A stretch of 46,481 nucleotides of DNA, taken from contig CAYYTW010000001.1 in the NCBI GenBank assembly GCA_964474765.1, positions 1-46,481 of the forward strand. The letters are read 5' to 3'. The DNA is from an uncultured Candidatus Saccharibacteria bacterium. GTDB taxonomy: Bacteria > Patescibacteriota > Minisyncoccia > Portnoybacterales > GCA-002795985. A program made the position numbers and the translations under genes. How positions within the stretch are numbered: position 1 is the first letter of the stretch; each line of letters begins with the position of its first letter. This document shows, one piece after another, positions 4,345 through 45,201 of the stretch. Below the pieces are notes generated by a model that was given only the letters and a program-made list of their open reading frames with translations, had not been told where the DNA came from and searched no databases.

Positions 4345-5853
4345 ATGAATAACGTGTTTATGAAGAATAAATTCTATATCACTACTCCCATCTATTACGT
4401 CAACGATAAGCCGCACATCGGCCATGCCTATACGACCGTTTTGGCCGATGTTCTGGCGCGTTATCATCGCTTAATGGGCGAAGAGGTTTTTTTCTCGGTT
4501 GGGACCGATGAGCATGGAGCGAAGATTGAGGCGGCGGCGGAGCAAGCCAATAAAAGTCCGCGGGAGTTTTGCGATGAAAACGCCGAGGCGTTTAAAGAAG
4601 CGTGGCGAAGTCTGAACATTTCGTATGACAATTTTATCAGAACCACCAACCCGAAACACGAGAAAGCCGTCTCAAATGTCCTGGATTATTTATACAAGAA
4701 GGATTTCATCTACGAAGGAGTTTATAAGGGACTTTATTGCCGGGGATGCGAGCAGTATAAGACGGACGACGATTTGGTTGGCGGTCGGTGTCCGGACCAT
4801 CAGATTGAGCCGGAAGTTATGGAAGAGGACAGCTATTTTTTCCGGTTGTCTAAGTTCGGGGCGGAGTTGGGGCGAAGCATCGCGGACGATAAGTTTAAAG
4901 TCGAGCCAGCGGAAAGAAAAAACGAAGTTTTGAATTTCATCAGAAATGGACTACAGGATATTTCCATCTCGCGCAAAAAAGTTAAATGGGGGGTGCCCCT
5001 GCCTTTTTCCGCCGAAGGCGGATCCGCCTCTGGCGGAGACAAAAAATTCACGACCTATGTATGGATAGATGCCTTTTTGAACTATCTGACTGGTCTAGGA
5101 TGGGATGGGAAAAAAAATTCAAAATGGAACAAGTTCGGCGCAAACGCCAGCAAAATTCAAAATTCGAAATTAAGCTTTTGGCCCCCCGATGTTCAACTAA
5201 TGAGCAAGGATATTTTGCGGGTTCACGCGACAATCTGGCCGGCTTTGCTGTTGGCTCTCAAGATTCCTTTGCCAAAAAAATTATATATTCATGGATTTTT
5301 TACTATTGATAGTCAGAAGATGAGCAAGTCGGTGGGTAATGTCATCTGGCCAGAACAGTTGGTTGAAAAGTTCGGCGTTGATGGCGCGAGGTATCTTTTA
5401 ATGTCTTCGCTGGCGCATGGTCACGATGGCGATGTTTCGTGGGAAAAAATGGCGGAGAAATATAATACAAATTTAGCCAACGGCTTGGGTAATTTAGTCA
5501 GCCGGGTAATGAATTTAGCCAAGGGTTTTAACATCGCGGTTCGAGACGGGAGCCTGAAAATAAAAAGCGAGAAAGCAAGGAAGCTTCTCGATGAAATTAA
5601 ACTGAAAGAAGCGCTGGACGAAATCTGGAAAGAGGTTGATTGGGCCAATAAATATGTGGAGGAAACAAGGTTGTGGGAGTTGGTTAAGGCGAATAAAAAA
5701 GAGGCGAGAAAAGTTCTGGAAGAATTGCTGGCGGCAATCATCAGCGTGGCGGAGAGCCTGAAGCCGTTTATGCCGGCAACCGCGGAAAAGATTATTAAAA
5801 TTTTAGAGTCGGGCGAGATGAAAAAGGGAGAGATTTTGTTTCCGAGAATCTAA
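4345..5853 (+). CDS. metG: methionine--tRNA ligase (short form, no C-terminal tRNA-binding domain)
   Basis: Class I motifs HIGH (KPHIGHAYT) and KMSKS (QKMSKSVGN), plus a CxxC...CP knuckle. An alternative start at 4360 (MKNKFYITTPIYY) is plausible. Confidence 0.92.
   Translation: MNNVFMKNKFYITTPIYYVNDKPHIGHAYTTVLADVLARYHRLMGEEVFFSVGTDEHGAKIEAAAEQANKSPREFCDENAEAFKEAWRSLNISYDNFIRTTNPKHEKAVSNVLDYLYKKDFIYEGVYKGLYCRGCEQYKTDDDLVGGRCPDHQIEPEVMEEDSYFFRLSKFGAELGRSIADDKFKVEPAERKNEVLNFIRNGLQDISISRKKVKWGVPLPFSAEGGSASGGDKKFTTYVWIDAFLNYLTGLGWDGKKNSKWNKFGANASKIQNSKLSFWPPDVQLMSKDILRVHATIWPALLLALKIPLPKKLYIHGFFTIDSQKMSKSVGNVIWPEQLVEKFGVDGARYLLMSSLAHGHDGDVSWEKMAEKYNTNLANGLGNLVSRVMNLAKGFNIAVRDGSLKIKSEKARKLLDEIKLKEALDEIWKEVDWANKYVEETRLWELVKANKKEARKVLEELLAAIISVAESLKPFMPATAEKIIKILESGEMKKGEILFPRI
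5007..5038. repeat. GGATCC-centred double-hairpin repeat, in-frame in metG
   Basis: ttccgccgaaggcggatccgcctctggcggag encodes SAEGGSASGG. Near-identical copies lie at 30674-30705 (topA) and 33842-33874 (pth). Confidence 0.85.
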
Positions 5854-5968: not shown

Positions 5969-6895
5969 GTGTTATTGATTGATACCCATGCGCATGTAAA
6001 TTTTAACGCTTATCGCGATGATAGCGACGACGTTATTAAGAGGGCGTTGAAAAATGGCATTTGGATGATTAATGTCGGATCGCAATATTCTACCAGCCGT
6101 CGGGCAGTGGAATTCGCGAAGCGATATCCCGAAGGTGTTTACGCGGCTGTCGGCGTCCACCCGGTTCATCTGAAAGAACAAGTGGTCAGCGAAGAGTTTG
6201 ACCCTCTGGAGGAGTTTGAATTTAAGACTAAGCCGGAAGTTTTTGATTATGGAAAGTATAAAGAATTAGCCAGTCAGCCAAAGGTGGTTGCTATCGGCGA
6301 GGTTGGTTTGGATTATTTTCATTTGCAAACCGCGGAACCACGCGGAACCGACCCTTCGACAAGCTCAGGGCAAGCGCGGAACCACGCGGAAACGATTGAG
6401 GAGCAGAAAAAGAAACAGCGGGATAATTTTATTAAGCATTTGAAGTTAGCCAAAGAATTAGACAAGCCAGTGATAATCCATTGCCGCGAGGCGCATAACG
6501 ATGTTTTGGAGATATTGAATGATTTTTATAATAACGCCCCCCACCCCCCTCTTAATTTAAGAGGGGGCGAGGAGGAGTTACGCGGAGTGGTCCATTCGTT
6601 TTCTGGCAGGTGGAGTCAGGCAGAAGAATATTTCAAATTAGGTTTTCATATCAGTTTTAATGGATTGATAACTTTTGCTCGGGATTATGATAAAGTGATA
6701 AAAAACGCGCCTCTAGGCCGTTTGATGCTTGAAACTGATTGTCCATATTTAACGCCGGTTCCACATCGCGGCAAAAGAAACGAGCCGAGTTATGTTAAGT
6801 ATGTGGCGGAGAAGATTGCGGAAATAAAAGGAGTGAGTTTTGAAGAGGTAGCGGAGGCGACGACCAAGAACGCCTATGAGTTGTTCGGGATTTAA
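5969..6895 (+). CDS. tatD: TatD family metal-dependent hydrolase/DNase
   Basis: N-terminal IDTHAH, plus GEVGLDY, IIHCREA, VHSFSG and LETDCPYL, the conserved TatD metal-binding blocks. GTG start. Confidence 0.88.
   Translation: MLLIDTHAHVNFNAYRDDSDDVIKRALKNGIWMINVGSQYSTSRRAVEFAKRYPEGVYAAVGVHPVHLKEQVVSEEFDPLEEFEFKTKPEVFDYGKYKELASQPKVVAIGEVGLDYFHLQTAEPRGTDPSTSSGQARNHAETIEEQKKKQRDNFIKHLKLAKELDKPVIIHCREAHNDVLEILNDFYNNAPHPPLNLRGGEEELRGVVHSFSGRWSQAEEYFKLGFHISFNGLITFARDYDKVIKNAPLGRLMLETDCPYLTPVPHRGKRNEPSYVKYVAEKIAEIKGVSFEEVAEATTKNAYELFGI
6329..6392. repeat. in-frame repeat insertion in tatD (encodes AEPRGTDPSTSSGQARNHAE)
   Basis: Direct gcggaaccacgcggaa units flank ccttcgacaagctcagggcaag. The segment sits between TatD blocks GLDYFH and KKQRDNF. 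Confidence 0.7.
6546..6566. repeat. perfect 21-nt palindrome inside tatD coding sequence
   Basis: cccctcttaa-t-ttaagagggg encodes PPLNLRGG. Related cccc...gggg palindromes occur at 14826-14864 and 32340-32500. Confidence 0.75.
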
Positions 6896-14893: not shown

Positions 14894-17632
14894 ATGAAAG
14901 AATATAATCCACAGAAAATAGAAAAAAAATGGCAACAAAGATGGGAGAAAAGCGTTTTGTATGGGGCCAAAGATTTTATCAAAAAGCCGAAAAAATATAT
15001 TTTGGTTGAGTTTCCTTATCCGTCCGGCAGCGGTTTGCATGTTGGTCACGCCAGAAGCTATTCGGCTCTGGATGCGATAGCTAGAAAAAAGAGGATGGAG
15101 GGATATAATGTTTTGTTCCCGTTCGGTTGGGATGCTTTTGGTCTGCCGACGGAAAATTACGCGATTAAAACGGGCATTCATCCGCGCCAGGCAACCGACC
15201 GAAACATTAAAACATACAAGCGGCAGATTAAGTCGCTGGGTTTGTCTGTTGACTGGAGCCGTGAAATCGATACGACCGACCCGAAATATTACAAATGGAC
15301 GCAATGGATATTTTTGAAATTTTTTGAAAAAGGCCTGGCTTATCAGGCGGAGATGCCGATTAACTGGTGTCCGTCCTGCAAAATCGGTTTGGCCAACGAA
15401 GAGGTTGTCGATGGCAAATGCGAGCGTTGCGGCGCAGCGACCAAGAAACGGCAAATCAAACAGTGGCTTTTAAAAATTACCGCCTATGCCGATAAGCTGT
15501 TAAAAGGATTGGAAGAGGTTGATTATCCGGAAAAAATTAAGGCCCAACAGATTAATTGGATTGGAAAGAGCGAGGGAACAACCGCAAAATTTGAAATTGT
15601 AATTTCAAATTTTGCGGAAAATCCGAAATCCGAAATCCGAAATCCGAAACAAACTCAAAATTCAAATAACAAAGATTTAAAACAATGTATAGAGATTTTT
15701 ACTACGAGAGTTGATACTATTTTCGGTGTTACCGCTTTGGTTCTGGCGCCGGAACGTCCAATAATTAAGGATTTAGAATCACGAATTAAGAATTACGAAG
15801 AGGTCGAAAAATATATAAAAGAAGCAGCGAAAAAACCAGAGATAGAGAGAACAAGCGAAACAAAAGAACGGACGGGCGTTGAATTGAAGGGGATTTTTGC
15901 GATTAATCCGGTTAATAATGAAAAAGTGCCGGTTTGGATTGCTGATTATGTCTTGGCGCATTACGGCGGCGGCGCGGTGATGGTGGTCCCGGCGCATGAC
16001 AAACGCGATTGGGATTTTGCGAAAAAGTATAATATTCCGATTAAAGAGGTTATTTCCGGTGGTAGTGTCGAAAAAGAGGTATATCCCGATTATGGAAAAT
16101 TAGTCAACTCCGGCCAATTCAACGGAATGACGTCGCAGGAAGCAATTGAAGAAATTTCAAGATGGTTGGAAGAAGGGGGGTTTGGCAAAAAGAAAATAGA
16201 ATATAAGCTTCGCGACTGGATTTTTTCGAGACAGCATTATTGGGGAGAACCTATACCGCTAATTTTTTGCGAGAGCTGCAAGAAATTAGCGGAAAATTCT
16301 AAACTCGAAATCCGCTCTCGCTCGCGAGGAACTTGTTCTAATTCTAAACAAATCCAAAATCCAAAATCCAAAATCCAATTTAGCGACGGCGAATTATTGA
16401 ATCCTGGGTGGATAGCTATGCCAGAGAATAAATTGCCCGTTGAATTGCCATATGTAAAAAAGTACCAGCCGACCGATACCGGCGAATCGCCGCTGGCAGC
16501 GATCAAAAATTGGGTCAATGTTAAATGCCCGAAGTGCAAGGGGTCGGCGAAACGGGAAACGGACACAATGCCTAATTGGGCCGGCTCGTCTTGGTATTAC
16601 CTCGCGTATCTTATGCGAGGAAATTCGAAATCCGAAGCACGAAATCCGAAACAAATTCAAAATAACAAATTCAAAATTAAAAAATATGTTTGGGATAAAA
16701 AGAAAATTAATTATTGGATGCCAGTAGACTTATATAATGGCGGAATGGAACACACGACCTTGCATTTGCTTTATTCTCGTTTCTGGCATAGATTTTTATA
16801 CGACTTAAAATTAGTGCCGACCCCCGAGCCTTATGCGCGGCGGCGTTCGCACGGCATGGTCTTGGCCGAAGACGGGCAAAAAATGAGCAAAAGCCGGGGC
16901 AATGTTGTTAATCCTGACGAGATAATTAAAATTTACGGGGCTGACGCCTTGAGAATCTACGAAATGTTCATGGGGCCTTTCGATCGGGCGATTAGCTGGA
17001 ATCAAAAAGGGTTAGTTGGCTGCTATCGGTTTTTATCAAGAGTTTGGGAAATGGTAAAGCAGGTAAGCAAAGTTAGCTCCGGCGTGATTCAGGTAGTGGG
17101 CCCCAAAATTGCTGGGGGACAGGAAATCGTGCCGGAACAAACAAGGAGAGGGTTGCTTCGAGAGTTGAATAAGACGATTAAGAAGGTTAGCGAAGATATG
17201 GAAGAGATGAAATTTAACACGGCCATTGCCTGCTTGATGGAATCGTCGAATGAAATAGGTAATTTATTGGGCGAAATGGAGAAATGGGGCTATTTCATAC
17301 CACAGGATATTTTTGAAACATATCTAAAATTACTTTCTCCCTTCGCGCCGCATTTGGCAGAGGAGCTTTGGAGCAAATTGGGGCATAAAAAGTCAATCTT
17401 TTACGAAAAATGGCTGAAATACGATCCAAAATTAATTCGAGAGGAAACTTTTGAGCTAGTTGTCCAGATTAATGGTAAAGTCCGCGACGCGATTTCCGCG
17501 ACGGTTGATATTTCGGAAGAGGACGCGAAAGAGTTGGCGTTGAATAGTGAAAAAGTTCAGAAGTGGCTTGAGAACAAGCCGGTTAGAAAAGTTATTTTCG
17601 TAAAAAATAGATTGATTAACCTAATCGTTTAA
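14894..17632 (+). CDS. leuS: leucine--tRNA ligase
   Basis: HIGH-type GLHVGHARSY, KMSKS (QKMSKSRGN), a CP1 editing domain (TTRVDTIFG) and zinc CxxC pairs. MKEYNPQKIEKKWQQRW at 14894 matches the canonical LeuRS N-terminus. The 14804 ORF-track start is probably an upstream extension. Confidence 0.93.
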   Translation: MKEYNPQKIEKKWQQRWEKSVLYGAKDFIKKPKKYILVEFPYPSGSGLHVGHARSYSALDAIARKKRMEGYNVLFPFGWDAFGLPTENYAIKTGIHPRQATDRNIKTYKRQIKSLGLSVDWSREIDTTDPKYYKWTQWIFLKFFEKGLAYQAEMPINWCPSCKIGLANEEVVDGKCERCGAATKKRQIKQWLLKITAYADKLLKGLEEVDYPEKIKAQQINWIGKSEGTTAKFEIVISNFAENPKSEIRNPKQTQNSNNKDLKQCIEIFTTRVDTIFGVTALVLAPERPIIKDLESRIKNYEEVEKYIKEAAKKPEIERTSETKERTGVELKGIFAINPVNNEKVPVWIADYVLAHYGGGAVMVVPAHDKRDWDFAKKYNIPIKEVISGGSVEKEVYPDYGKLVNSGQFNGMTSQEAIEEISRWLEEGGFGKKKIEYKLRDWIFSRQHYWGEPIPLIFCESCKKLAENSKLEIRSRSRGTCSNSKQIQNPKSKIQFSDGELLNPGWIAMPENKLPVELPYVKKYQPTDTGESPLAAIKNWVNVKCPKCKGSAKRETDTMPNWAGSSWYYLAYLMRGNSKSEARNPKQIQNNKFKIKKYVWDKKKINYWMPVDLYNGGMEHTTLHLLYSRFWHRFLYDLKLVPTPEPYARRRSHGMVLAEDGQKMSKSRGNVVNPDEIIKIYGADALRIYEMFMGPFDRAISWNQKGLVGCYRFLSRVWEMVKQVSKVSSGVIQVVGPKIAGGQEIVPEQTRRGLLRELNKTIKKVSEDMEEMKFNTAIACLMESSNEIGNLLGEMEKWGYFIPQDIFETYLKLLSPFAPHLAEELWSKLGHKKSIFYEKWLKYDPKLIREETFELVVQINGKVRDAISATVDISEEDAKELALNSEKVQKWLENKPVRKVIFVKNRLINLIV
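15617..15670. repeat. CGAAATC pentamer-rich repeat (family A), in-frame in leuS
   Basis: gaaaatccgaaatccgaaatccgaaatccgaaacaaactcaaaattcaaat encodes ENPKSEIRNPKQTQNSN. Confidence 0.8.
16291..16380. repeat. family A-related repeat, in-frame in leuS
   Basis: Encodes ENSKLEIRSRSRGTCSNSKQIQNPKSKIQ. It contains a 33-nt segment (16306-16338) identical to 30722-30754 in topA. Confidence 0.85.
16621..16680. repeat. family A repeat, in-frame in leuS
   Basis: aaattcgaaatccgaagcacgaaatccgaaacaaattcaaaat encodes NSKSEARNPKQIQNNKFKI. The same string occurs in intergenic copies at 34109 and 38578. Confidence 0.85.
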
Positions 17633-28717: not shown

Positions 28718-31063
28718 TTATTTCTTGTTGCACTCTTTGTTTGAGCACTTGGTTTTTCCTTTTGGCATCTCGACTAAGAGCGAATTGCACTTCGGGCATT
28801 TTTGGCCGGTCGGTTTATTCCAAAGCGCGAAGTCGCAATTCGGATAGCGTGAGCAGCCGTAAAAATTTCTTCCTTTTTTCGAGCGTAGTTCAACGATGTC
28901 TCCTTCTACGCATTTTGGGCAGACTATTCCCAGCTTCTTCTCGATTTTTTTTATATTTTTGCAATTTGGATAATTGGAACACCCCAAGAAAGCGCCGAAG
29001 CGTCCGCGTTTTACCGTCATCGGCGCTCCGCACTTTTCGCAGCCAACGCCGGCATGCGCTCCATCTATCTTCTTCTCTTCTTCGGTTTTTTCAGTATATT
29101 TACATTTGGGAAAATTGGCGCAAGCAATGAATTTCCCGAATCGTCCGAATTTCATGATAAGATCACCGCCGCATTCCGGGCATTGACGGTCAAGCTTTTC
29201 CAAAATGTCTTCTTTTTTTACTTTTTCCATTTTTTCTAAAAGATTTTTATGAAACGGTCCATAAAATTCACTAATTACCGGCGCCCACTCCCGTTTTCCC
29301 TCCGCTATTTCATCAAGGTTTTCTTCTACGGTCGCGGTAAATTTGACGTCTACGATTCGAGGAAAATGTTCTACTAAAAGATCGTTGACAAGCGCGCCGA
29401 TTTCCAGGGGGAAAAGCCGGCGACTCTCATCCTTATCGATGTATTGCCGCTCAATAATGGTTGAAATTATCGGCGCGTAGGTTGATGGCCGGCCGATGCC
29501 GTTTTCTTCAAGCGTTTTTACCAGCGATGCTTCGTTGTAACGCGGCGGGGCGGCGGTGAATTTTTGTTCCGTCTCAATGCGGGAGAGGGTTAAGGGTTCC
29601 TTTTCTTTCATCTCCGGGATCAATCCTGTTTCTCCAAGGTTTCTTTTTTCGTAGGCTTTCAGGTAGCCATCAAATTTTACAACTGACCCGCCGGCCCTAA
29701 GAAGATAGGAATTTTTCGTCTTTTCGTTTTTTGCCTCAATCTCTATTTGCAGGGAGTCAAAAATAGCCGGCGTCATTTGCGAAGCGATCACGCGGCCCCA
29801 GATGAGTTTGTAAAGTTTATGCTGGTTGGGATCAAGAGTCGCTTTGAGTTCGTCTGGGATTTTTTCCGGATGAGTCGGGCGAATGGCTTCATGCGCCTCT
29901 TGGGCGCCTTTTGATTTATTTTTGAAGAAGCGGGGAGAGGGCAGAGCGTATTCTGCTCCGAATTCTTTTTGAATTGTTTTTTGCGCGGAGGCAAGTGATT
30001 CTTGCGAAAGATTAAACGAATCGGTTCGCATGTAGGTGATATGACCCTCTTCGTAGAGCTTTTGAGCCACGACCATGGTTTGCTTAGCGGAGAACCCCAG
30101 TCGTCCGATAGCGGCCTGTTGTAGCGTAGAGGTAGTGAGGGGCGGAGGAGGGAATCCTTGAGTTTCTTTGCGGTCAACTGACTTGATGGAATAAGACGAT
30201 TCTTCCAGGTCGGCTTTTATGTTTTCCGATTCTTTCGTGGACGAGATGGAGGTTTTCTTGTTTCGGTATACTCCAGCGAAAACTTTTGTCTCGGTGATTT
30301 TTTCAATTTTTTCCCCGTTTTTCTCCGCGAGGCTTGCTTCAAATTCTTCGGTTGCGCCCTCTTTTCGGAGTCGGGCTTTAATATTCCAAAATTCTTCTTC
30401 GCGGAATTTTTCGATTTCGCGTTCACGTTCGACAATGAAGCGTAGAGCAATAGATTGCACGCGTCCGGCCGAAAGGCCGCGTCGCATTTTTTTCCAGAGA
30501 AACGGCGAGAGTTCATAACCGACGAGGCGGTCTAAAATTCTTCGCGCTTGCTGGGCATCGACCAAATTAATATCGATCTCGCGCGGATTTTTAAGCGCGT
30601 TTTCTATAGCGCTTTTGGTGATTTCATGGAAAACAATGCGGTGATAAGGTTTTGAATTTTGAATTTTGAATTTTTCCGCCGAAGGCGGATCCGCCCCTGG
30701 CGGAGAATTTTTTTCGGATTTGAACAAGTTCCTCGCGAGCGAGAGCGGATTTCGGATTTCGGATTTCCCAAGCTGTAAAGCTTGGGCGAGGTGCCAGGAA
30801 ATAGCTTCGCCTTCACGGTCTTCGTCGGTGGCCAGAATAACCTCTTTTGATTTGGCGGATAATTTTTTAAGTTCGGAAACTTTGGTTCTCGCCTTGGCAG
30901 GAATAATGTATCTGGGTTCAAAATTGTGTTCAATATCAATCCCCATTTCTTTTTTTGGCAGATCGCGAACATGCCCATAGCTCGATTTAACCAAAAAATT
31001 GTCGCTTAGAAAGCGCTGGATGGTTTTGGCTTTGGTTGGCGATTCGACGATGACGAGTTTCAT
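28718..31063 (-). CDS. topA: DNA topoisomerase I
   Basis: Toprim N-terminus MKLVIVESPTKAKTI, the active-site region and four C-terminal CxxC...CxxC zinc-ribbon repeats. The 31084 ORF-track start arises from a duplicated leader repeat. Confidence 0.93.
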   Translation of the reverse strand: MKLVIVESPTKAKTIQRFLSDNFLVKSSYGHVRDLPKKEMGIDIEHNFEPRYIIPAKARTKVSELKKLSAKSKEVILATDEDREGEAISWHLAQALQLGKSEIRNPLSLARNLFKSEKNSPPGADPPSAEKFKIQNSKPYHRIVFHEITKSAIENALKNPREIDINLVDAQQARRILDRLVGYELSPFLWKKMRRGLSAGRVQSIALRFIVEREREIEKFREEEFWNIKARLRKEGATEEFEASLAEKNGEKIEKITETKVFAGVYRNKKTSISSTKESENIKADLEESSYSIKSVDRKETQGFPPPPLTTSTLQQAAIGRLGFSAKQTMVVAQKLYEEGHITYMRTDSFNLSQESLASAQKTIQKEFGAEYALPSPRFFKNKSKGAQEAHEAIRPTHPEKIPDELKATLDPNQHKLYKLIWGRVIASQMTPAIFDSLQIEIEAKNEKTKNSYLLRAGGSVVKFDGYLKAYEKRNLGETGLIPEMKEKEPLTLSRIETEQKFTAAPPRYNEASLVKTLEENGIGRPSTYAPIISTIIERQYIDKDESRRLFPLEIGALVNDLLVEHFPRIVDVKFTATVEENLDEIAEGKREWAPVISEFYGPFHKNLLEKMEKVKKEDILEKLDRQCPECGGDLIMKFGRFGKFIACANFPKCKYTEKTEEEKKIDGAHAGVGCEKCGAPMTVKRGRFGAFLGCSNYPNCKNIKKIEKKLGIVCPKCVEGDIVELRSKKGRNFYGCSRYPNCDFALWNKPTGQKCPKCNSLLVEMPKGKTKCSNKECNKK
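30651..30768. repeat. composite repeat insertion in-frame in topA (GGATCC hairpin + family A)
   Basis: Encodes GKSEIRNPLSLARNLFKSEKNSPPGADPPSAEKFKIQNSK between conserved TopA blocks. It contains 30674-30705 (GGATCC element, opposite orientation to the metG and pth copies) and 30722-30754 (33 nt identical to leuS). Confidence 0.85.
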
Positions 31064-31137
31064 GAAACATGTAACATGAAACATGTAACAGATGCAAAAA
31101 AATTGTTACATGTTATATGTTGTGTGTTACGTGCTCT

Positions 31138-32238: not shown

Positions 32239-32527
32239 TTCTTATCTTAAATGAGTGGATAATGATAAATTGCGGGATAAGGGGGAATCAGGCATTGATT
32301 CCGTTAGAGAGAGTTTGGTGAATAATGCCTAAAACTATTATTCTCCCTCCCCCCTTTAGACTTTGTCCGTCCGTAGCTTCACGCGAAGGAGGATGAGGGG
32401 AGGATTAAAGAGGGGTGTTAAAATGAATAAATTATATTTTTTATTTGAAACACCGCCTCCCCCAACTCCTCCTCATCATCCTGCGCCAAGACTTTGGAGG
32501 ACAGACCAGAGGAGGGAAGGATAAAAT

Positions 32528-32657
32528 GAGATGGTTACAAAACTATCTAATCTGTCATCCCGAATTCATTTCGGGATCTAAGTTTAGTGATTATTAGAAC
32601 GAAGTAGATTCTGAAACAAGTTCAGAATAACAATACGACGAGTTTTGTAACCATCTC
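32528..32657. mobile_element. 130-bp MITE copy A (TIR gagatggttacaaaac)
   Basis: 16-bp perfect terminal inverted repeats. It differs from copy B (36840-36969) at one position and is flanked by aat/aat. Confidence 0.8.
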
Positions 32658-32694
32658 AATATACAATTTTCACCAAACACTCTCTCTCACGGGA

Positions 32695-33375: not shown

Positions 33376-33550
33376 TTTGTGTGATTTGTAATCGAATTGT
33401 TGTTTCTTGCATCATCTTGAATTTATTTCAGAATCTTTTTAATAATCGATAACCTATGAGATCCCGAAACAAGTTCGGGATGACATGGATGTATAGTTAA
33501 GAAGCTTTTAATTAAATCTTTTTAATAGGAGTATTATGTTTTTTGGGTAA

Positions 33551-34108
33551 TTAAAATAATTCCAATTTTTTAATCGCTTCTGGAATTACTTTTTTAATAA
33601 CTTCTTTTTCTTCTCTGTTGAAGTTTTTTAAAACAAAGGCGTCAGCCTTGATGTCGGTTTCGGGGTGGGGTGGCCTGATGCCGATACGCATGCGCCAAAA
33701 ATCTTTTGTGTCAAGCGCATCAATGATTGATTGCGCTCCTTTATGTCCGGCCGAGCCGCGGCCAAACTCGAATTTAAAGATGCCGAGCGGCAAATCAAAA
33801 TCATCATGCACTATCGTGTAACTTCCAACTTCTCCGCCAAAGGCGGATCCACCCTCGGCGGACAACTTCCAACTTCCAACTATTGATTTAACTGCTTCCC
33901 CCGAACTATTCATATATGTCTGCGGCTTGGCGATGATAATGCCGCGTTCAGTATTTTCAGATATTTCCGACTCTAACTTTCTATTTAATTTCCACTTAGA
34001 AAATCCGCCGATATTTTTTTGAATATAATCAACAGTTAAAAACCCCACATTGTGTCGGGTTTTTTCATATTTTTTTCCCGGATTGCCGAGGCCGACAACT
34101 ATCTTCAT
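33551..34108 (-). CDS. pth: peptidyl-tRNA hydrolase
   Basis: MKIVVGLGNPG...YEKTRHNVGF...MNSSG...HDDFDLPLG...GHKG blocks. The 34150 ORF-track start lies inside a family A repeat. Confidence 0.9.
   Translation of the reverse strand: MKIVVGLGNPGKKYEKTRHNVGFLTVDYIQKNIGGFSKWKLNRKLESEISENTERGIIIAKPQTYMNSSGEAVKSIVGSWKLSAEGGSAFGGEVGSYTIVHDDFDLPLGIFKFEFGRGSAGHKGAQSIIDALDTKDFWRMRIGIRPPHPETDIKADAFVLKNFNREEKEVIKKVIPEAIKKLELF
33842..33874. repeat. GGATCC-centred hairpin repeat in-frame in pth
   Basis: Encodes SAEGGSAFGGE and is flanked by ggaagttggaagtt units. It has the same coding orientation and frame as the metG copy. Confidence 0.8.
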
Positions 34109-34240
34109 AGAAATCCGAAGCACGAAATCCGAAATCCGAAACAATATCAAATGCCCAAAATCATAATGCCCAAACCGTTTTGAATATTTGAAAATTTAAT
34201 TTATAATTTATTTCGAATTTCGAAATTTTGATTTCGAGTT
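34109..34240. repeat. family A palindromic repeat, intergenic copy (pth-lepB)
   Basis: Left end gaaatccgaagcacgaaatccgaaatccgaaaca. Right end atttcgaatttcgaaattttgatttcgag in inverted orientation. Confidence 0.7.
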
Positions 34241-34322
34241 TACGAACTAATAATATCGCGTCTTGCAAAAATGGGCAAATACTATAGAATGAAATTAACA
34301 AATAATTCATAAAGGAGAAATA

Positions 34323-36738: not shown

Positions 36739-36839
36739 ATTACTTAGATTCGAAATCCGAATTTCGAAATACGAAACAAATTCAAATATCTAATGTTCAA
36801 ATTCCTGAAACGGTTTCGGTCATTCTGATTTTGAACATT

Positions 36840-36969
36840 GAGATGGTTACAAAACTATCTAATCTGTCATCCCGAATTCATTTCGGGATCTAAGTTTAGT
36901 GATTATTAGAACGAAGTAGATTCTGAAACAAGTTCAGAATGACAATACGACGAGTTTTGTAACCATCTC
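36840..36969. mobile_element. 130-bp MITE copy B, nested inside a family A repeat
   Basis: 129/130 identical to 32528-32657 and flanked by att/att. Family A halves lie at 36745-36838 and 36971-37010. Confidence 0.8.
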
Positions 36970-37035
36970 ATTCTACATTGTTTCGGATTTCGGATTTCGT
37001 GCTTCTGATTTTTGCATAGAGAGGGGGTATGTTTT

Positions 37036-38157: not shown

Positions 38158-38577
38158 ATGATTGAAATAAGAAATCTCACTCGAAGTATAATCGACCAAT
38201 GTTTTTTTCAAAAAGTCGGCAAGATTGTCTTGAAAAAATTGGGGCAGTCGGAAAATTTTGAAGTAAGCCTGGTTTTTGTGGGCGATGCGAGGATGCGGGC
38301 GCTGAATAAAAAATATCGGGGCATAGATAAAACGACCGATGTGCTGTCGTTTTTTTATGGCGGAGAGGGGCCGGGAGATATGTTGGGTGAGATTGTTATT
38401 TCAATTCCGCAAGCGAAAAAGCAAGCGAAAAAGCAGAGTTATCCACTAAAGCGCGAATTGCTTGCGCTTTTTGCGCATGGTATACTTCATTTATCGGGGT
38501 ATGAAGATGAGACGAAAAGGGGATACGAAAAGATGATGAGGAAACAGGAAGAACTTTTAGAATCTTTAAGTTTTTAA
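38158..38577 (+). CDS. ybeY: rRNA maturation RNase YbeY
   Basis: HGILHLSGYEDE (H-G-x-L-H-L-x-G-Y motif) and DVLSF upstream. An alternative TTG start lies at 38143. Confidence 0.87.
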   Translation: MIEIRNLTRSIIDQCFFQKVGKIVLKKLGQSENFEVSLVFVGDARMRALNKKYRGIDKTTDVLSFFYGGEGPGDMLGEIVISIPQAKKQAKKQSYPLKRELLALFAHGILHLSGYEDETKRGYEKMMRKQEELLESLSF

Positions 38578-38728
38578 ATCCGAAATCCGAAGCACGAAAT
38601 CCGAAACTCTCTTACGCCAAGGCTTCAGAGGGCAAGCAATACTAATTAAGTTAGAATTTGCCTGCCCACCGAAGCTCGTTAGGGCGAATGTTGGGTTTCG
38701 TATTCCGGATTTTGATATTCGAATTTTC
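38578..38728. repeat. family A palindromic repeat, intergenic copy (ybeY-ftsA)
   Basis: Left end aaatccgaaatccgaagcacgaaatccgaaac. Right end gtttcgtattccggattttgatattcgaatttt, inverted. Confidence 0.7.
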
Positions 38729-40043: not shown

Positions 40044-40268
40044 ATGAAATTTAGACAAACATTATTCTGGGACACAAACCCTAAGAATATAGACGTTAAA
40101 AGAAATGCTCAATATATCATTGAACGAATTTTGGAGTTTGGGGATATAAACGAAGTAAGTTGGATGTTAAGGCATTACCCGAAAAGCGTTATTAAAAAAG
40201 TAATGCACCTTCCACGAGTTCAATTAAACGATAAATCAAAAGCATTATGGTCCCTGTTGATCAAGTAA
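40044..40268 (+). CDS. small protein upstream of AbiEii toxin (putative cognate antitoxin-like partner)
   Basis: 74-aa ORF overlapping the next gene by 22 nt. The LFWDTNPKNIDVKRNAQYIIERILEFGD pattern resembles small partners and C-terminal parts of AbiEi-type proteins as I recall them. Confidence 0.5.
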   Translation: MKFRQTLFWDTNPKNIDVKRNAQYIIERILEFGDINEVSWMLRHYPKSVIKKVMHLPRVQLNDKSKALWSLLIK

Positions 40269-40927
40269 AACAAGGTTTTGACACTCTTTTTTTTGATGCT
40301 TTGCCGAAAGCTGTTGTTCTGGCGTTAAAAAAATGTTCAGAAATGGATTTTTTTTCACAAGGTAATTGGTATTTGGCCGGGGGCACCGCGCTCGCTTTGC
40401 AGTCAGGGCATCGCAGGTCTTACGACCTGGATTTTTTTACAAAAAATAAAATTTTTGACGAAAAAAAAGTTGAAAAAATTTTGAATGACGGAGGAGAATG
40501 GATTACTAATGCTATAAGCAAGGGAACAGTTTACGGCATATTTTCCGAAACAAAAATGAGTTTTATATCTTACCCATACTTCAAACCGGCCGAGAAAATG
40601 CGTAACTTTGGAACAGTTTCTTTGCTAACGCCCCCCGATATTGCGGTAATGAAAATTATCGCTATTTCTCAAAGAGGTAAAAAGCGAGACTTTTTTGATT
40701 TATATTGGATTTGTCGAAATGTAGAATCGTTGCGTAATAGTATCTTGAAGGTAGACAAACAATATTCTGTGCGTCAAAATCTTATCCATATTTTGAAAAG
40801 TTTGGTGTATTTCAAAGACGCGGAAAGCGACCCGGAGCCGGAAATATATTTTGACGCCAACTGGAAAAAAGTAAAAAGTTTTTTCACGAAAGAAATTCCA
40901 ATAATTGCGGAGAAAATAATCAAATGA
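40247..40927 (+). CDS. nucleotidyltransferase AbiEii/AbiGii toxin family protein
   Basis: GGTALALQSGHRRSYDLDFF matches the nucleotidyltransferase motif of AbiEii-like (DUF1814) type IV toxins. 226 aa. Confidence 0.78.
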   Translation: MVPVDQVKQGFDTLFFDALPKAVVLALKKCSEMDFFSQGNWYLAGGTALALQSGHRRSYDLDFFTKNKIFDEKKVEKILNDGGEWITNAISKGTVYGIFSETKMSFISYPYFKPAEKMRNFGTVSLLTPPDIAVMKIIAISQRGKKRDFFDLYWICRNVESLRNSILKVDKQYSVRQNLIHILKSLVYFKDAESDPEPEIYFDANWKKVKSFFTKEIPIIAEKIIK

Positions 40928-41132: not shown

Positions 41133-41522
41133 ATGGAACTCAATGAGAAAAATTTAAAATCTGTTTTAAGGCCTATTTTAACAGATCAGCGCGAGGAATG
41201 TCAGCGTTATCTGGGGGCCCTAAAGGAAGATTTTGATTCAAAACTCGAAATTATTGGCGAGCAATATTTTGATATTAAAAAAATCCTTGATTCTCACACA
41301 AAGATCCTTGATTCTCACACAAAGACCCTTGATTCTCACACAAAGACCCTTGAATCGCATACGGAAATGATAGTTTCTATTAAAGAAGACGCGGAAATCA
41401 TCAAACTTGACATCGAATTTATTAAAAATGAACTTAGAAAGAAAGTTGATTGGGATGAATTCGCCGCTTTAGAAAAACGAGTGGCGCTAATTGAATCAAG
41501 ACTTAAGGGCGCGATCGCTTAA
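41133..41522 (+). CDS. hypothetical coiled-coil protein with heptad tandem repeats
   Basis: 129 aa, helical and charged, with four consecutive (I/T)L(D/E)SHT(K/E) heptads. Confidence 0.6.
   Translation: MELNEKNLKSVLRPILTDQREECQRYLGALKEDFDSKLEIIGEQYFDIKKILDSHTKILDSHTKTLDSHTKTLESHTEMIVSIKEDAEIIKLDIEFIKNELRKKVDWDEFAALEKRVALIESRLKGAIA
41283..41366 (+). repeat. 4 x 21-bp tandem repeat within a CDS
   Basis: Units start at 41283, 41304, 41325 and 41346. The first two are identical (atccttgattctcacacaaag). Confidence 0.9.
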
Positions 41523-41825: not shown

Positions 41826-41967
41826 AGACTTAGGACTTACGCGCTTGTCATCCTGAATTTATTTCAGGATCTAAAAAGGCTTTATATGAGACAAACGGTT
41901 TTATTATGAGATTCCGAAACAAGTTCGGAATGACAAATTTGGAGTCAAACGCGTAAGTCCTAAGACT
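41826..41967. repeat. MITE-like palindromic element related to the 130-bp MITE core
   Basis: TIR cttaggacttacgcg (41829-41843) pairs with cgcgtaagtcctaag (41950-41964). The internal gtcatcctgaatttatttcaggatc ... gattccgaaacaagttcggaatgac core is shared with 32528 and 36840. Confidence 0.7.
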
Positions 41968-41984
41968 AATAACTAAAAAATAAG

Positions 41985-44009
41985 TTGATTAACAAACATA
42001 TGCGAAAAAATATTTACTCCGGCAAATCAAGAAGTTTTGATATTAGAACGAAAAGGTCGAGACATACGGGATTCCGTTTTCATTTTGGCAGTTTGTTTAA
42101 AGGCGGGCTGACAGTTTTGATTTCCGTCTTGATTATTTTCGCTCTTGTTCAAGCCGGCACCATCACGCCGCCAAGCGGATCGCCAAGCGCAAAATTTTAT
42201 ACTCTTTCGGAAATCTACACTCGGCTTACCACTAACGCCACTACCACTGAAGGGGGGCACTCTTTTGCTTTTAGCGATTCTCTGGCTGGCACGGGCCGCA
42301 CTTTAACCGAGATTTATGGCGCTATTCCGACCATTGACGCGACAAAAGTGCTTTCCGGCACAAGTTATCTTGGCATAGCCGGAAGTATGGCCAATAATGG
42401 CGCATTTGCTTTAACTGCCAGTTCGTCTGATCAATCAGTTACGGCTGGCTATTATAGCGGCGGCACTCTGGCTGGGGACGCGGATTTGGTGGCGGTAAAT
42501 ATTTCAAACGGTGTTAATATATTTGGCGTCATCGGCAATCTGATTGCGGGTTATCTTTACGGCGACAGCGACGCTTCAAAAGTATTGACTTCTGCGACAG
42601 GCAATGATGGAGCTAACTCTTATTTAGCTACAAACTTAAACAATAATACAGTTAAAAAAGGTATCAGTTATGGAGTAGGCCCAACCACCGGCGCTTATTC
42701 CGGCTATCCGGGCACTGGATGGTCTGGCACTGCCATAAATCAAGCCGCCTGCGACGCCCAAAACCCGACTTGGTACTGGTTTGAAGACGGCAACGGCGAT
42801 GGCGACACAACTGACCCAGAAGATGGTGTTTGCGTCCGAGCTTCTACTGTTACTTCTCTTTCTTGGAACGGTGCGGAGCAGATTGCCCCGACTCCGATCG
42901 CCGCCCAAGCCGCGACAGCTGGTACAGCAAATTCAATCACTAAAGCCAGCGCCGGCTGGACGGCTAATGCCTATACTGATGCTGTTGTTAAAATTACTTC
43001 GGGTACTGCATCGGGTTGCTGGGGTGTTGTTAAGTCAAACATCACCGACACCATTACTGTCTACGGCTCATGGCTTACTTCCAGCCCTGCTACAAGCAGC
43101 TACGCCTCAAATTGTGGCACGCCTGACGAAACTTCGGTTTTCTCTGTTGAAGATGACGGTTTCGCTATTTACGACAATTCTTGGATCGGCGATTGGACTT
43201 GTGACGGAACGGCTTTTCCAAACGGCGCGCCTTCTTGGGTTTCCTATCCGACTTCGGCCAAGGCCGGTTCCGGCAATATCGCGTTGGCCATAGCAGATTG
43301 CTATGATGGTACAAGAGATTTGCTTCCCACCGAAGCGAGCCGCGCGGTTAAAACTGGCACAGCCACTGCAACTTCAACTACATCCATCACCGACTCTTCT
43401 CTTTCTTTAAATACCAACGCATGGGTTGGGCAAAAAGTGCTTATTACCGGCGGCACTGGTTCGGGCGGTTATGGCCGAATTGAGAGCAATACGGGAACAG
43501 TAATTACGGTGGATAGCTGGACAGGCGGGGATCCAGATGTCGGATCCACATTTGCTATCATCTATCTTATTCCGCACGCAGCTTATAACCCAGCAACAGA
43601 TATTCTTAGCCTTAACGCAGTTGGAAGTGCTGTAACAGCTGATAATGACCCTCTAAACGGCAACCTCGGGCCACTGACACAAGAAGTTTTAAAAAATTGG
43701 AAGGGCACAAAGTTGCCTACAGCCAGTGATTTTTTCGGTTTTTGCGGCACCGAGGGAGACGGCACCCCCAGTTTAGCTTATCGCACTTCCGGCAACGCTT
43801 ATACCACTGACAAAACTTACGGCGATTATGGCGGACAAGTAGGAAGATCAGACGAATTTTTGGATTTAGCTAACAGCGGAAACTGGGAATGGCTTTCAGA
43901 GCAGCACCACTACTACAGTGCGCGGATAGCCGGCAATTACGCCTGCTCGTACTTCCATGGTAGTAGTGTCTACGGTGGCTACAGATTCCGTGCCGTCTTC
44001 CGCCCGTAG
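41985..44009 (+). CDS. DGR target (variable) protein: N-terminal membrane anchor, Thr/Gly/Ser-rich ectodomain, C-terminal C-type-lectin/FGE-like VR domain
   Basis: TM helix GLTVLISVLIIFALVQAG. The C-terminus GNWEWLSEQ...YRFRAVFRP matches the WEW...(G/Y)FR pattern of CLec-fold DGR variable regions. The last 118 nt match the TR. An alternative ATG start lies at 41999. Confidence 0.85.
   Translation: MINKHMRKNIYSGKSRSFDIRTKRSRHTGFRFHFGSLFKGGLTVLISVLIIFALVQAGTITPPSGSPSAKFYTLSEIYTRLTTNATTTEGGHSFAFSDSLAGTGRTLTEIYGAIPTIDATKVLSGTSYLGIAGSMANNGAFALTASSSDQSVTAGYYSGGTLAGDADLVAVNISNGVNIFGVIGNLIAGYLYGDSDASKVLTSATGNDGANSYLATNLNNNTVKKGISYGVGPTTGAYSGYPGTGWSGTAINQAACDAQNPTWYWFEDGNGDGDTTDPEDGVCVRASTVTSLSWNGAEQIAPTPIAAQAATAGTANSITKASAGWTANAYTDAVVKITSGTASGCWGVVKSNITDTITVYGSWLTSSPATSSYASNCGTPDETSVFSVEDDGFAIYDNSWIGDWTCDGTAFPNGAPSWVSYPTSAKAGSGNIALAIADCYDGTRDLLPTEASRAVKTGTATATSTTSITDSSLSLNTNAWVGQKVLITGGTGSGGYGRIESNTGTVITVDSWTGGDPDVGSTFAIIYLIPHAAYNPATDILSLNAVGSAVTADNDPLNGNLGPLTQEVLKNWKGTKLPTASDFFGFCGTEGDGTPSLAYRTSGNAYTTDKTYGDYGGQVGRSDEFLDLANSGNWEWLSEQHHYYSARIAGNYACSYFHGSSVYGGYRFRAVFRP
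43888..44005 (+). repeat. DGR variable repeat (VR)
   Basis: 118 nt aligned without gaps to 45030-45147. There are 15 mismatches, all where the TR has adenine. Confidence 0.9.
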
Positions 44010-44082
44010 TGATTTCCCATCTTGATAATTTGGTAATTTGATGATTTCGCTGATTTTGAAAAAAAGATTACACTGATAATAT

Positions 44083-44460
44083 ATGGCTTATTTATATCAG
44101 GATTTAACTTACAAACTGCGAGGAATATTTTTTGAGGTATATAACAAATTAGGACCGGGGTTGCCAGAGAAAGTTTATCAGAAATCTGTGATTTATGAAC
44201 TGCAAAAAGATAATATTTCCTACGAGACCGAAAAGAACATTAATATCAAATATAAGGATATAAATGTCGGAAAACAAAGGTTGGATTTGGTTGTTGATGG
44301 GAAAATAATCATTGAGGTTAAAGCCACTGATAATATGCATTCGCTTTTTGAAAAACAAACCATTGCTTATCTTAAAGCGTCAGATTACAAGCTGGCTTTA
44401 TTGGTGAATTTTGGCGGGAGTAAACTGGTTATAAAACGATATATTAATATGGATCAGTGA
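44083..44460 (+). CDS. GxxExxY protein (PD-(D/E)XK nuclease-fold family)
   Basis: GLPEKVY is GxxExxY. LDLVVDGKIIIEVKA is a D...ExK-like motif. 125 aa. Confidence 0.82.
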   Translation: MAYLYQDLTYKLRGIFFEVYNKLGPGLPEKVYQKSVIYELQKDNISYETEKNINIKYKDINVGKQRLDLVVDGKIIIEVKATDNMHSLFEKQTIAYLKASDYKLALLVNFGGSKLVIKRYINMDQ

Positions 44461-44496
44461 TATCAGTTTTTATTTATCAGTGTTATCGGTTTTTCT

Positions 44497-44853
44497 ATGT
44501 CTCGCTACGAACACATAAGAATATTTCAATGCGCCTATATGTTGACCATTGAAATATACAAAACGACAGCCAATTTCAACCGGGAATTCAAATACACTCT
44601 TGGAGAAAAGTTAAAAAACGCGGCACACGAAATTCTGGACGCGATAATGAGAACAAACTCAATGCCAGACAGAGAGAAACAAAAATGCTTTCCAGAAATT
44701 GATTTTAAGAAAGAGAATTTGCGCGTGTATTTAAGAATCGCCGCTGATTTAAAATTAATCAGCCCTGGCCGGCTTGGAGTTCTCAATGAAAGAATTGAAG
44801 AGCTTGGCCGACAACTGGGCGGTTGGCAAAAATGGACGGCTAAAAGCAGGTAG
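44497..44853 (+). CDS. avd: four-helix-bundle protein, Avd-like DGR accessory factor
   Basis: 118-aa helical basic protein with a C-terminal ELGRQLGGWQKW resembling the Avd/23S-IVS protein family. It sits between the target gene and the TR, as in canonical DGRs. Confidence 0.75.
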   Translation: MSRYEHIRIFQCAYMLTIEIYKTTANFNREFKYTLGEKLKNAAHEILDAIMRTNSMPDREKQKCFPEIDFKKENLRVYLRIAADLKLISPGRLGVLNERIEELGRQLGGWQKWTAKSR

Positions 44854-45029
44854 TATTTTTGGCCGCCTATTCTTGCCAGAGTTTCCGCTTGCCATGGGCG
44901 GCGGGAAGCGCGCAAGAGAAATGATGGGAATCACAGTCCCGTTCCCTAGGAAAATTTTCTAGGATATTTGACAAAGGCCATACCGAGCTTCGGCAAGGAT
45001 TGGCCGGGAATAATGAATAGTAACGGGAC

Positions 45030-45147
45030 AATGGCTTTCAGAGCAGCACAACAACAACAATGCGCGGATAGCCGGCAATAACGCCTGCTCGAACTTCAAT
45101 AATAATAATGTCAACAATGGCAACAGATTCCGTGCCGTCTTCCGCCC
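45030..45147 (+). repeat. DGR template repeat (TR)
   Basis: Non-coding copy of the VR, rich in AAC/AAT (14 AAY triplets in the VR frame), 103/118 identical to the VR. Confidence 0.9.
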
Positions 45148-45161
45148 TAATGATTCCCGAA

Positions 45162-45200
45162 CTTGAGCCCTTAGCTCTTTATTGGGGCTAAGGGCTCAAG
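45162..45200. other. 14-bp perfect-stem hairpin between the TR 3-prime end and the RT stop codon
   Basis: cttgagcccttagc (45162-45175) pairs with gctaagggctcaag (45187-45200), with an 11-nt loop. No flanking T-run on either strand. Confidence 0.8.
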
Positions 45201-45201
45201 C

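Follow-up and report, generated by a model that had tools for sequence, protein, structure and literature searches.

The window analyzed here comprises positions 1–46,481 of contig CAYYTW010000001.1, and its host, to judge from how the nearest orthologues are named, is a member of Candidatus Portnoybacteria in the candidate phyla radiation (CPR). It carries three copies of a 30-nt GC-rich palindrome, referred to below as the element or the 30-mer, located within the genes for methionyl-tRNA synthetase (MetRS), DNA topoisomerase I (TopA), and peptidyl-tRNA hydrolase (Pth). As an earlier note on this DNA had said, the three open reading frames (ORFs) remain open, and Pfam finds their products full-length. 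The genes and the copies within them are as follows.

4345–5853, plus strand: metG, methionyl-tRNA synthetase (Pfam tRNA-synt_1g, E = 1e-100; PDB 2csx, E = 2e-115)
28718–31084, minus strand: topA, DNA topoisomerase I (Pfam Toprim, Topoisom_bac, and Zn_ribbon_Top1; PDB 6ozw, E = 6e-144)
33551–34150, minus strand: pth, peptidyl-tRNA hydrolase (Pfam Pept_tRNA_hydro, E = 4e-48; PDB 2z2i)
5008–5037, plus strand: twin-hairpin copy 1, TCCGCCGAAGGCGGATCCGCCTCTGGCGGA, in metG; read as SAEGGSASGG, residues 222–231 of the 502-residue ORF
30675–30704, plus strand: twin-hairpin copy 2, TCCGCCGAAGGCGGATCCGCCCCTGGCGGA, in the minus-strand gene topA; read as PPGADPPSAE, residues 128–137
33833–33862, plus strand: twin-hairpin copy 3, TCCGCCAAAGGCGGATCCACCCTCGGCGGA, with one stem mismatch, in the minus-strand gene pth; read as SAEGGSAFGG

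All three copies follow the motif TCCGCC-NNN-GGCGGA-TCCGCC-NNN-GGCGGA with GGATCC at its center. Relative to the consensus TCCGCCNNNGGCGGATCCGCCNNNGGCGGA, the numbers of mismatches at 5008–5037, 30675–30704, and 33833–33862 are 0, 0, and 1, respectively. The insert in Pth corresponds to residues 97–106 of the 199-residue ORF, or to residues 83–92 when counted from the likely start MKIVV. The three peptides are those given in the earlier note, and its metG and topA ranges were accurate to within 1 nt, but its pth range (33842–33874) lay ~10 nt too far to the right. Its statement that the copies occur in both orientations holds in a weak sense. The 30-mer is nearly self-reverse-complementary and its direction is set only by the two loop triplets; the metG and topA copies differ at 1 nt on the plus strand and hence are opposite relative to their coding strands. 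These two copies are read in different frames.

The 30-mer consists of two 15-nt hairpin units, TCCGCC-NRA-GGCGGA and TCCGCC-TYN-GGCGGA, which are inverted and joined with a spacer of zero. The G+C content of the copies is 70–77%, compared with 44% for the window. None of 100 dinucleotide-preserving shuffles contained any match to the motif at ≤3 mismatches, and the five strand-matches of the 15-mer core in the window were equalled in 0 of 100. Folded as DNA, the element forms twin hairpins; their energy is −12.8 kcal/mol for the copies in metG and topA and −7.1 kcal/mol for that in pth, which has the mismatch. Folded as RNA, it forms one long hairpin (−21.6 to −26 kcal/mol, z = −3.5 to −5.9). 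An Rfam scan of the window gave tRNA only and no match for the element. A terminator role was rejected: on both strands the T-run comes ahead of the hairpin and the A-run behind it, opposite to the order in an intrinsic terminator.

The earlier note described the element as stop-free in the frames used on both strands; in fact, all three copies lack a stop codon in all six frames. Since the length is also a multiple of three, the element cannot close any reading frame. An open ORF is thus a built-in property of the 30-mer and is not by itself evidence of selection.

Empty sites in related genes

The ten residues encoded by the element are missing from related proteins. Alignment of MetRS with PDB 2csx and 1a8h leaves a gap of exactly 10 residues at the element, and a gap of exactly 10 residues is likewise found there between Pth and PDB 2z2i. 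For TopA, residues 106–144, located between Toprim and the next domain, are unaligned with the PDB structures. Close orthologues (72–88% identical) lack exactly 10 codons in MetRS and Pth. Specifically, MetRS orthologues with 84–88% identity (P0004, P0007, P0024, and P0025) have LPF|DKKF where the window has LPF-SAEGGSASGG-DKKF, and the exact 10-residue gap is present in the orthologue P0026 as well. At this site, 110 MetRS homologues were scorable; 105 of them carry no additional residue, and four carry ten. The closest Pth orthologue (P0122) is without exactly the ten inserted residues, and the TopA orthologues P0242 and P0243 (83–84% identity) are without the whole 37-residue block that holds the element. 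The MetRS peptide that spans the junction reads ...GVPLPFSAEGGSASGGDKK....

The same was observed at the DNA level for metG. The empty sites are ccattt|gataaa (L121) and cctttc|gataaa (L122), while the filled sites are cctttt[30 nt]gacaaa or cctttt[30 nt]gataaa. Filled and empty alleles differ by exactly 30 nt with no target-site duplication (TSD), and the flanking TTT/TTC and GAY are already present in the empty sites. The comparison with orthologues that the earlier note had proposed therefore comes out in its favor: the residues are not ancestral in MetRS, Pth, or TopA, and these alignments show that the 30-mer is an insertion.

The topA and pth copies are associated with heptamer arrays, which are listed below.

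30656–30766, minus strand: composite 111-nt (37-codon) insert in topA, between Toprim and the next domain
33818–33880, minus strand: (GGAAGTT)x4 heptamer array in pth, interrupted by the element (direct reading of the sequence)

Excision of the 30 nt from pth gives a perfect (GGAAGTT)x4 array. The topA composite comprises, in coding-strand order, (AAATCCG)x3, the core CTCTCGCTCGCGAGGAACTTGTTC, the 30-nt element, and (AAAATTC)x3, and Tandem Repeats Finder placed arrays at 30650–30674 and 30746–30767. A paralogue of this composite is located within leuS at 16280–16387. The two align throughout except for a 30-nt gap at the element, where topA has AAATTC[30]AAAATTC and leuS has AAATCC|AAAATCC.

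In total, leuS contains three in-frame inserts of AT-rich heptamer tandem arrays (AAATCCG, AAATCCA, and AAATTCA) at 15608–15685, 16280–16387, and 16619–16690, and they are absent from LeuRS of the close relatives L124 and L128. The 63-nt core of the middle insert is 86% identical to that of the topA insert but is used in a different reading frame. Similar arrays are present in intergenic DNA at 34104–34246, 36746–37012, and 38576–38607. These arrays recall the STRR heptamer repeats of cyanobacteria.

AlphaFold (AF2) models built on the orthologue alignments were used to locate the inserts in the proteins. In the Pth model (mean pLDDT of 80.5), the sole segment with pLDDT below 50 is residues 82–93, corresponding to the insert (S83–G92), which is placed between helix 66–85 and strand 96–107. 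In the MetRS model, pLDDT is below 50 at residues 220–226 (P0001 numbering), inside the insert, and also at residues 254–272, which form a second lineage-specific insert. The surface-loop location expected in the earlier note agrees with these low-confidence predicted loops of Pth and MetRS. The inserts are located in predicted disordered loops, and proteins appear to tolerate the element as a flexible loop of 10 residues.

Distribution, flanks, and reading frame

A genome scan with exact stems was conducted on one genome per species (185,579 species); all counts and phyla from it are lower bounds, and the taxon labels of some co-assembled bins may be imprecise. The exact-stem 30-mer was found at at least 120 loci in species-representative genomes. 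The earlier note was right to place the element in three essential genes, but its occurrence extends beyond three genes or one genome and covers many phyla. The results below refer to the matches listed, all of which are in metagenome-assembled genomes (MAGs). Many CPR lineages are among the hosts, namely Kaiser-, Portnoy-, Lipton-, Doudna-, Moran-, Falkow-, Giovannoni-, Campbell-, Terry-, Davies-, and Magasanikbacteria, together with records labelled Saccharibacteria. Hosts outside the CPR include Omnitrophota, Kiritimatiellae, Lentisphaerae, Planctomycetales, Ignavibacteriota, Bacteroidota, Chloroflexota/Dehalococcoidia, Melainabacteria, Firestonebacteria, Desulfotomaculaceae, and some records labelled Proteobacteria. 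The assemblies with the 30-mer were produced by several assemblers and include long-read contigs of 0.7–1.6 Mb.

The 30-mer is present in both coding and non-coding DNA. Host genes verified elsewhere with Pfam encode RpoB, DnaE (DNA polymerase III alpha), AspRS, HemB, and an amylase-domain protein; in HemB (Chloroflexota) and AspRS, exact 10-residue gaps were found relative to solved structures. The E. coli genomes searched contained no copy of the 30-mer, and the plasmids searched gave partial 20-nt matches only, with no full 30-mer. Phage was also considered as a carrier; the element was found in 2 of ~2.9 million viral contigs, so no vector role is evident. A literature search for the DNA core and the peptide found no description of the 30-nt element, and all literature matches for the core string were cloning primers.

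In some genomes the 30-mer lies inside other repeats. In the Kiritimatiellae MAG STD1_155 (L005 4587–4616 and 6408–6437; L002; L051), it is within a longer repeat with identical flanks, aatgcataggaattt[E]caatccgtctttgttgtcattccgagcgta, where E stands for the element, which can hence also be carried along by larger repeats. In L077, L076, L114, and L118, it is in the loop of another palindrome, CTCCCCCTT[E]AAGGGGGAG.

A total of 125 copies from these loci were compared. Their loops follow the pattern NRA...TYN, and the commonest loop pairs, GAA...TCT and AGA...TTC, are one asymmetric sequence in two orientations. Loop covariation was rejected as not significant (perfect complementarity in 23 of 125 pairs; shuffles gave a mean of 16.8 and a maximum of 29). 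The apparent G·T and A·C pairing in the loops arises because one asymmetric master (GAA...TCT) occurs in both orientations. Doublets outnumber true singlets by roughly 25:1 (125 vs ~5) in the sampled loci. No half-elements around a cargo gene, which might represent an autonomous parent, were found in these loci, and most “solo” halves are degenerate doublets.

The flanking positions are T at −2 (86%), T/C at −1 (84%), A/G at +1 (82%), and A at +2 (78%), which gives a symmetric preference of TTY|RAA. Because the empty sites already hold bases of the TTY|RAA type, these flank bases belong to the target and not to the element. Strongly 7-nt-periodic flanks were found for ~5% of the copies compared with 0.2% of controls. 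The association with heptamer arrays is therefore real, but it covers a minority of copies, and such arrays were rejected as a general target.

A copy was regarded as genic when it is in a stop-free stretch of ≥600 nt, a definition based on length and not on gene calling. By this definition, 76 of the 125 copies (61%) are genic, while 73% of random positions in the same loci are, indicating little avoidance of genes; the remaining ~39% of copies are outside long ORFs. The genic copies are distributed unevenly among the frames: 66 are read as S-A-x-G-G-S-A-x-G-G, 6 in the Arg-rich frame (RRxRIRxxR), and 4 as P-P-x-A-D-P-P-x-A-E. In the long ORFs of these loci, 47%, 11%, and 42% of the TTY|RAA sites are in the Ser-Ala-Gly, Arg, and Pro phases, respectively. 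Thus, the Ser/Ala/Gly frame accounts for 87% of genic copies vs 47% expected, and the proline frame, at 5% vs 42%, is depleted ~eight-fold. The frame would be irrelevant to an insert that was spliced out or bypassed, and the bias speaks for translation. This indirect evidence is the main one that argues for the insert being translated and under purifying selection. The topA copy, which uses the rare proline frame, sits within a non-native insert of 37 residues, where constraint is presumably weak.

Origin and spread of the element

The element shares features with several known systems. The earlier note drew a parallel with Rickettsia palindromic elements (RPEs). According to later accounts of the original work (Ogata et al. 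2000 via PMC10969869 and PMC3184786), RPEs are ~105–150 bp long, comprise about ten families, code for a conserved peptide several tens of residues in length, and are restricted to Rickettsia and its relatives. As far as these accounts describe RPEs, the likeness consists of a palindromic repeat in essential coding genes that leaves the ORF open, occupies tolerated positions, has non-coding copies, and is read as selfish DNA that became protein. The parallel is correct for the in-frame palindromic insertion in genes, but the element is not an RPE: it is exactly 30 nt (10 codons) long, stop-free in six frames, without TSD, and near-identical in many phyla, and its host in the window is not a Rickettsia. 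It is set apart from RPEs by size and host range, and a 30-mer cannot resemble an RPE family over the length that defines one.

MITEs, or miniature inverted-repeat transposable elements, have terminal inverted repeats, and the element likewise consists of two abutted inverted halves of 15 nt. It differs in having no TSD, in flanks that are inverted (TTY / RAA) and not direct, and in being 30 nt long without a core, whereas MITEs are ~50–400 bp with an internal core (PMC3184786). REPINs are doublets of repetitive extragenic palindromic (REP) sequences mobilized by REP-associated tyrosine transposases (RAYTs) (PMC3116915, PMC3337134), and carry a GTAG or CGTC tag at one end (PMC3733652). Like the element, they are non-autonomous inverted doublets of short GC-rich hairpins that can form one long hairpin and have no classical TSD. 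REPINs are extragenic, have a spacer and tens to hundreds of copies, depend on a single-copy RAYT, and are mostly inherited vertically. The element, in contrast, has no spacer, starts with TCCG and ends with CGGA without a GTAG/CGTC tag, is mostly intragenic (76 of 125 copies) with few exact copies per genome in many phyla, and is accompanied by no RAYT in the 46-kb window.

Mitochondrial GC clusters, among which yeast GC42 (PMC4478555) and, as cited there, the double-hairpin elements (DHEs) of Allomyces (Paquin et al. 2000) are described, are also GC-rich hairpins of 30–50 nt in AT-rich genomes, with stems conserved well beyond the background rate and variation mainly in the loops. Presence/absence polymorphism, lack of an encoded enzyme, and occasional in-frame coding copies are further common points. 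The clusters belong to organelles and lie mostly between genes, with duplicated AG target nucleotides in the case of GC42 (PMC4478555). The element is on bacterial chromosomes, mostly genic, without duplication, and with the TTY|RAA preference.

Elements derived from IS200/IS605, the palindrome-associated transposable elements (PATEs), have hairpin ends, no TSD, seamless empty sites, and a conserved short sequence beside the insertion point. The 30-mer resembles them in all of these respects (no TSD, seamless empty sites, hairpins, and a conserved flank). Known elements of this kind need longer ends that bear guide sequences, and they insert 3′ of a specific tetra- or pentanucleotide on one side. 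The element is 30 nt in all; TTY is conserved on its left, and RAA equally so on its right. No TnpA was found by the Pfam scan of the 46-kb window.

The 30-mer is probably an ultra-short non-autonomous mobile element, translated as a flexible loop, which is like RPEs, REPINs, and mitochondrial GC clusters but is a member of none. A trans-acting enzyme would recognize the hairpin doublet and insert copies, and perhaps also excise them precisely. The likeliest kind would be a single-strand transposase of the HUH/Y1 type, as in REPIN-RAYT or IS200/IS605, on account of the hairpins, the doublet unit, the lack of duplication, and the seamless empty sites. The inserts would be transcribed and translated as flexible loops of 10 residues, and copies in the basic (RRxRIRxxR) or proline-rich (PPxADPPxAE) frame, or in structured regions, would be purged by purifying selection. 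The element would be selfish or neutral to the host and not useful to it.

The metG site gives the closest view of gain and loss. The element is located at the same MetRS bond and in the same orientation in the window, P0002, P0027, and, in decayed form, P0028. In a neighbor-joining tree, the four filled orthologues are non-sister, and the window, P0002, and P0028 each group with an empty allele. Compared with L127, the window differs at 1 of 30 element positions and 62 of 189 flank positions (33%; third codon positions, 35 of 63); compared with L124, the values are 1 of 30 and 19%. The element is conserved far more strongly than the sequence around it. The filled alleles are no more alike in their flanks than over the whole gene, which makes a recent recombination patch unlikely. 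The metG of L128 contains the decayed copy, which has 7–8 differences in 30 and is read in frame as PTQGGSVSGG. At other sites, P0127 has a separate Pth copy two codons away from the pth site of the window, and LeuRS of L124 carries SAHGGSASGG where both the window and L128 have an empty site. P0001 was found on one contig, and the protein search gave almost no conspecific sequences. Either the same metG bond was hit repeatedly by a conserved master, or one old insert was held constant and exactly excised several times. Both readings imply a precise, sequence-specific mechanism.

The second of these leads to the strongest rival explanation, in which an old, vertically inherited insert is kept for a nucleic-acid function, either as a protein-binding palindrome or as an mRNA hairpin for stability, processing, or ribosome pausing, and absences are secondary precise deletions. 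The shared position and orientation in four MetRS lineages, the conservation of the element well above that of flanking synonymous sites, the very stable RNA hairpin, and the symmetric conservation of both flanks, as for a dimeric binding site, are all consistent with it. However, the seamless empty site in 105 of 110 MetRS would need many nucleotide-exact deletions with 0–1 nt of microhomology. A locus-specific function is also hard to reconcile with an element that is found in unrelated genes, at unrelated positions, and between genes across phyla, and the decayed L128 copy persists in frame. We regard this explanation as unlikely.

A much less probable alternative is that the 30 nt are not translated, being cut out of the mRNA or skipped by the ribosome as in T4 gene 60 and the “byp” elements of Magnusiomyces mitochondria. 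The stable mRNA hairpin would suit it, as would the likeness between byp elements and GC-rich hairpins inserted into AT-rich coding DNA. It does not account for the presence of 87% of genic copies in one frame where 47% is expected, or for the 5% in a frame with 42% expected. Moreover, bypass is unneeded when the length is always a multiple of three without stops, and the decayed L128 copy, PTQGGSVSGG, is in frame.

An artifact of library preparation or assembly might be suspected because GGCGGATCC resembles a synthetic Gly-Gly-Ser/BamHI linker, all of the at least 120 genome loci among the matches listed are in MAGs, and the literature on the core string consists of cloning primers. This is hardly credible in view of the different groups, assemblers, and platforms involved, including the long-read contigs of 0.7–1.6 Mb, and of the orthologous position in four independent data sets (NCBI, ENA, JGI, and the window), among which there are point differences and a decayed copy; an artifact would also not yield a strong frame bias or flank preference. 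Convergent selection for a flexible Ser/Ala/Gly-rich linker peptide, with no mobile DNA, fits the linker-like peptide of the dominant frame and the location of inserts in loops, but is just as implausible because identity across phyla is at the nucleotide level including synonymous positions, ~39% of copies are outside long ORFs and some, including that in topA, are in other frames, and convergence would not make a palindrome.

Several observations weigh against the interpretation as a translated mobile element. Exact-match copies appear few, with one or few loci per MAG among the matches listed. Such a low copy number is unusual for a proliferating repeat and leaves the spread across phyla without an explanation. 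The Pfam scan revealed no transposase or other candidate mobilizing gene in the 46-kb window, and none is tied to the element. The flanks are conserved symmetrically, as TTY on one side and RAA on the other, which fits poorly with the target of known IS200/IS605 elements, located on one side only. The support for translation, from the frame bias, is indirect. The same site and orientation in four MetRS lineages could reflect one old insertion kept by selection with several precise losses, and the MetRS tree is without support values.

A bolder version of the mobile-element interpretation is doubtful. In it, the 30-mer would be an actively homing cross-phylum element and the smallest self-contained bacterial transposable unit described, inserted at TTY|RAA sites and excised from them with precision by an enzyme that is possibly widely shared or host-encoded. 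Its length and six-frame stop-free make-up would be adapted to the essential genes of gene-dense uncultivated bacteria, and the same bond would have been hit repeatedly in separate lineages.

If the 30-mer is a translated mobile element, the idea behind RPEs, in which selfish DNA survives as protein, would extend from one intracellular genus to a large part of the uncultivated bacterial tree and to strongly constrained genes such as rpoB, dnaE, topA, and those of aminoacyl-tRNA synthetases. At 30 nt, the element would be near the lower size limit for a mobile unit, and it suggests a design rule for tolerance within genes: a length that is a multiple of three, six stop-free frames, and one benign frame. 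Such inserts, together with the heptamer arrays and the further families of hairpins, lengthen protein alignments and break them up, and the resulting lineage-specific indels can mislead CPR phylogenies and domain models; they could also serve as strain-level markers. The near-identity across phyla raises the question of what enzyme or vector carries DNA between CPR bacteria and the organisms with which they live.

Other inserts and repeats in the window

Further lineage-specific inserts are present near the metG copy. The loop after GLGWDG in metG (5116–5175) is an insertion hot spot, where the window has a 20-residue insert with (CAAAATT)x3 and orthologues have the unrelated inserts PPLKKGG (P0004) and CHPEFISGS...MLKQVQHD (P0024 and P0026). 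A tatD-family gene (5969–6895) contains lineage-specific inserts at 6329–6394 and 6539–6586. One tatD insert, TAEPRGTDPSTSSGQARNHAET, contains a direct repeat of CGCGGAACCACGCGGAA; it has a longer form in L124 and is absent in L122 and L127. The other, PHPPLNLRGGEEELRG, is in a loop that is different in every orthologue.

Further repeats are present in the window. An intergenic hairpin family of TCATCCCGAATTCATTTCGGGATCT and GAGATTCCGAAACAAGTTCGGAATGACA recurs at 33412–33485 and 41848–41935, and is translated as ...MLKQVQHD... in MetRS of other Portnoybacteria. A 144-nt repeat occurs twice with 97% identity (32527–32670 and 36839–36982).

The region 41985–46467 looks like a diversity-generating retroelement (DGR). 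Its reverse transcriptase gene (Pfam RVT_1) is on the minus strand at 45202–46467. The template repeat (45030–45147) matches a variable repeat (43888–44005) at the 3′ end of a 674-residue ORF (41985–44009) with no Pfam hit, and 18 of 26 mismatches between the template and variable repeats are at template adenines. In L122 and L124, RVT_1 genes adjoin a syntenic M16 peptidase. The DGR reverse transcriptase was considered as a mobilizer of the 30-mer and set aside, as no link to the element is evident. The low-GC stretch upstream of the DGR target gene contains a 21-nt tandem repeat, CCTTGATTCTCACACAAAGAC (41279–41383; 3.3 copies, 97% matches), and an ORF at 40247–40927 with an AbiEii nucleotidyltransferase toxin domain (type IV toxin-antitoxin / abortive infection) adjoins the DGR region.

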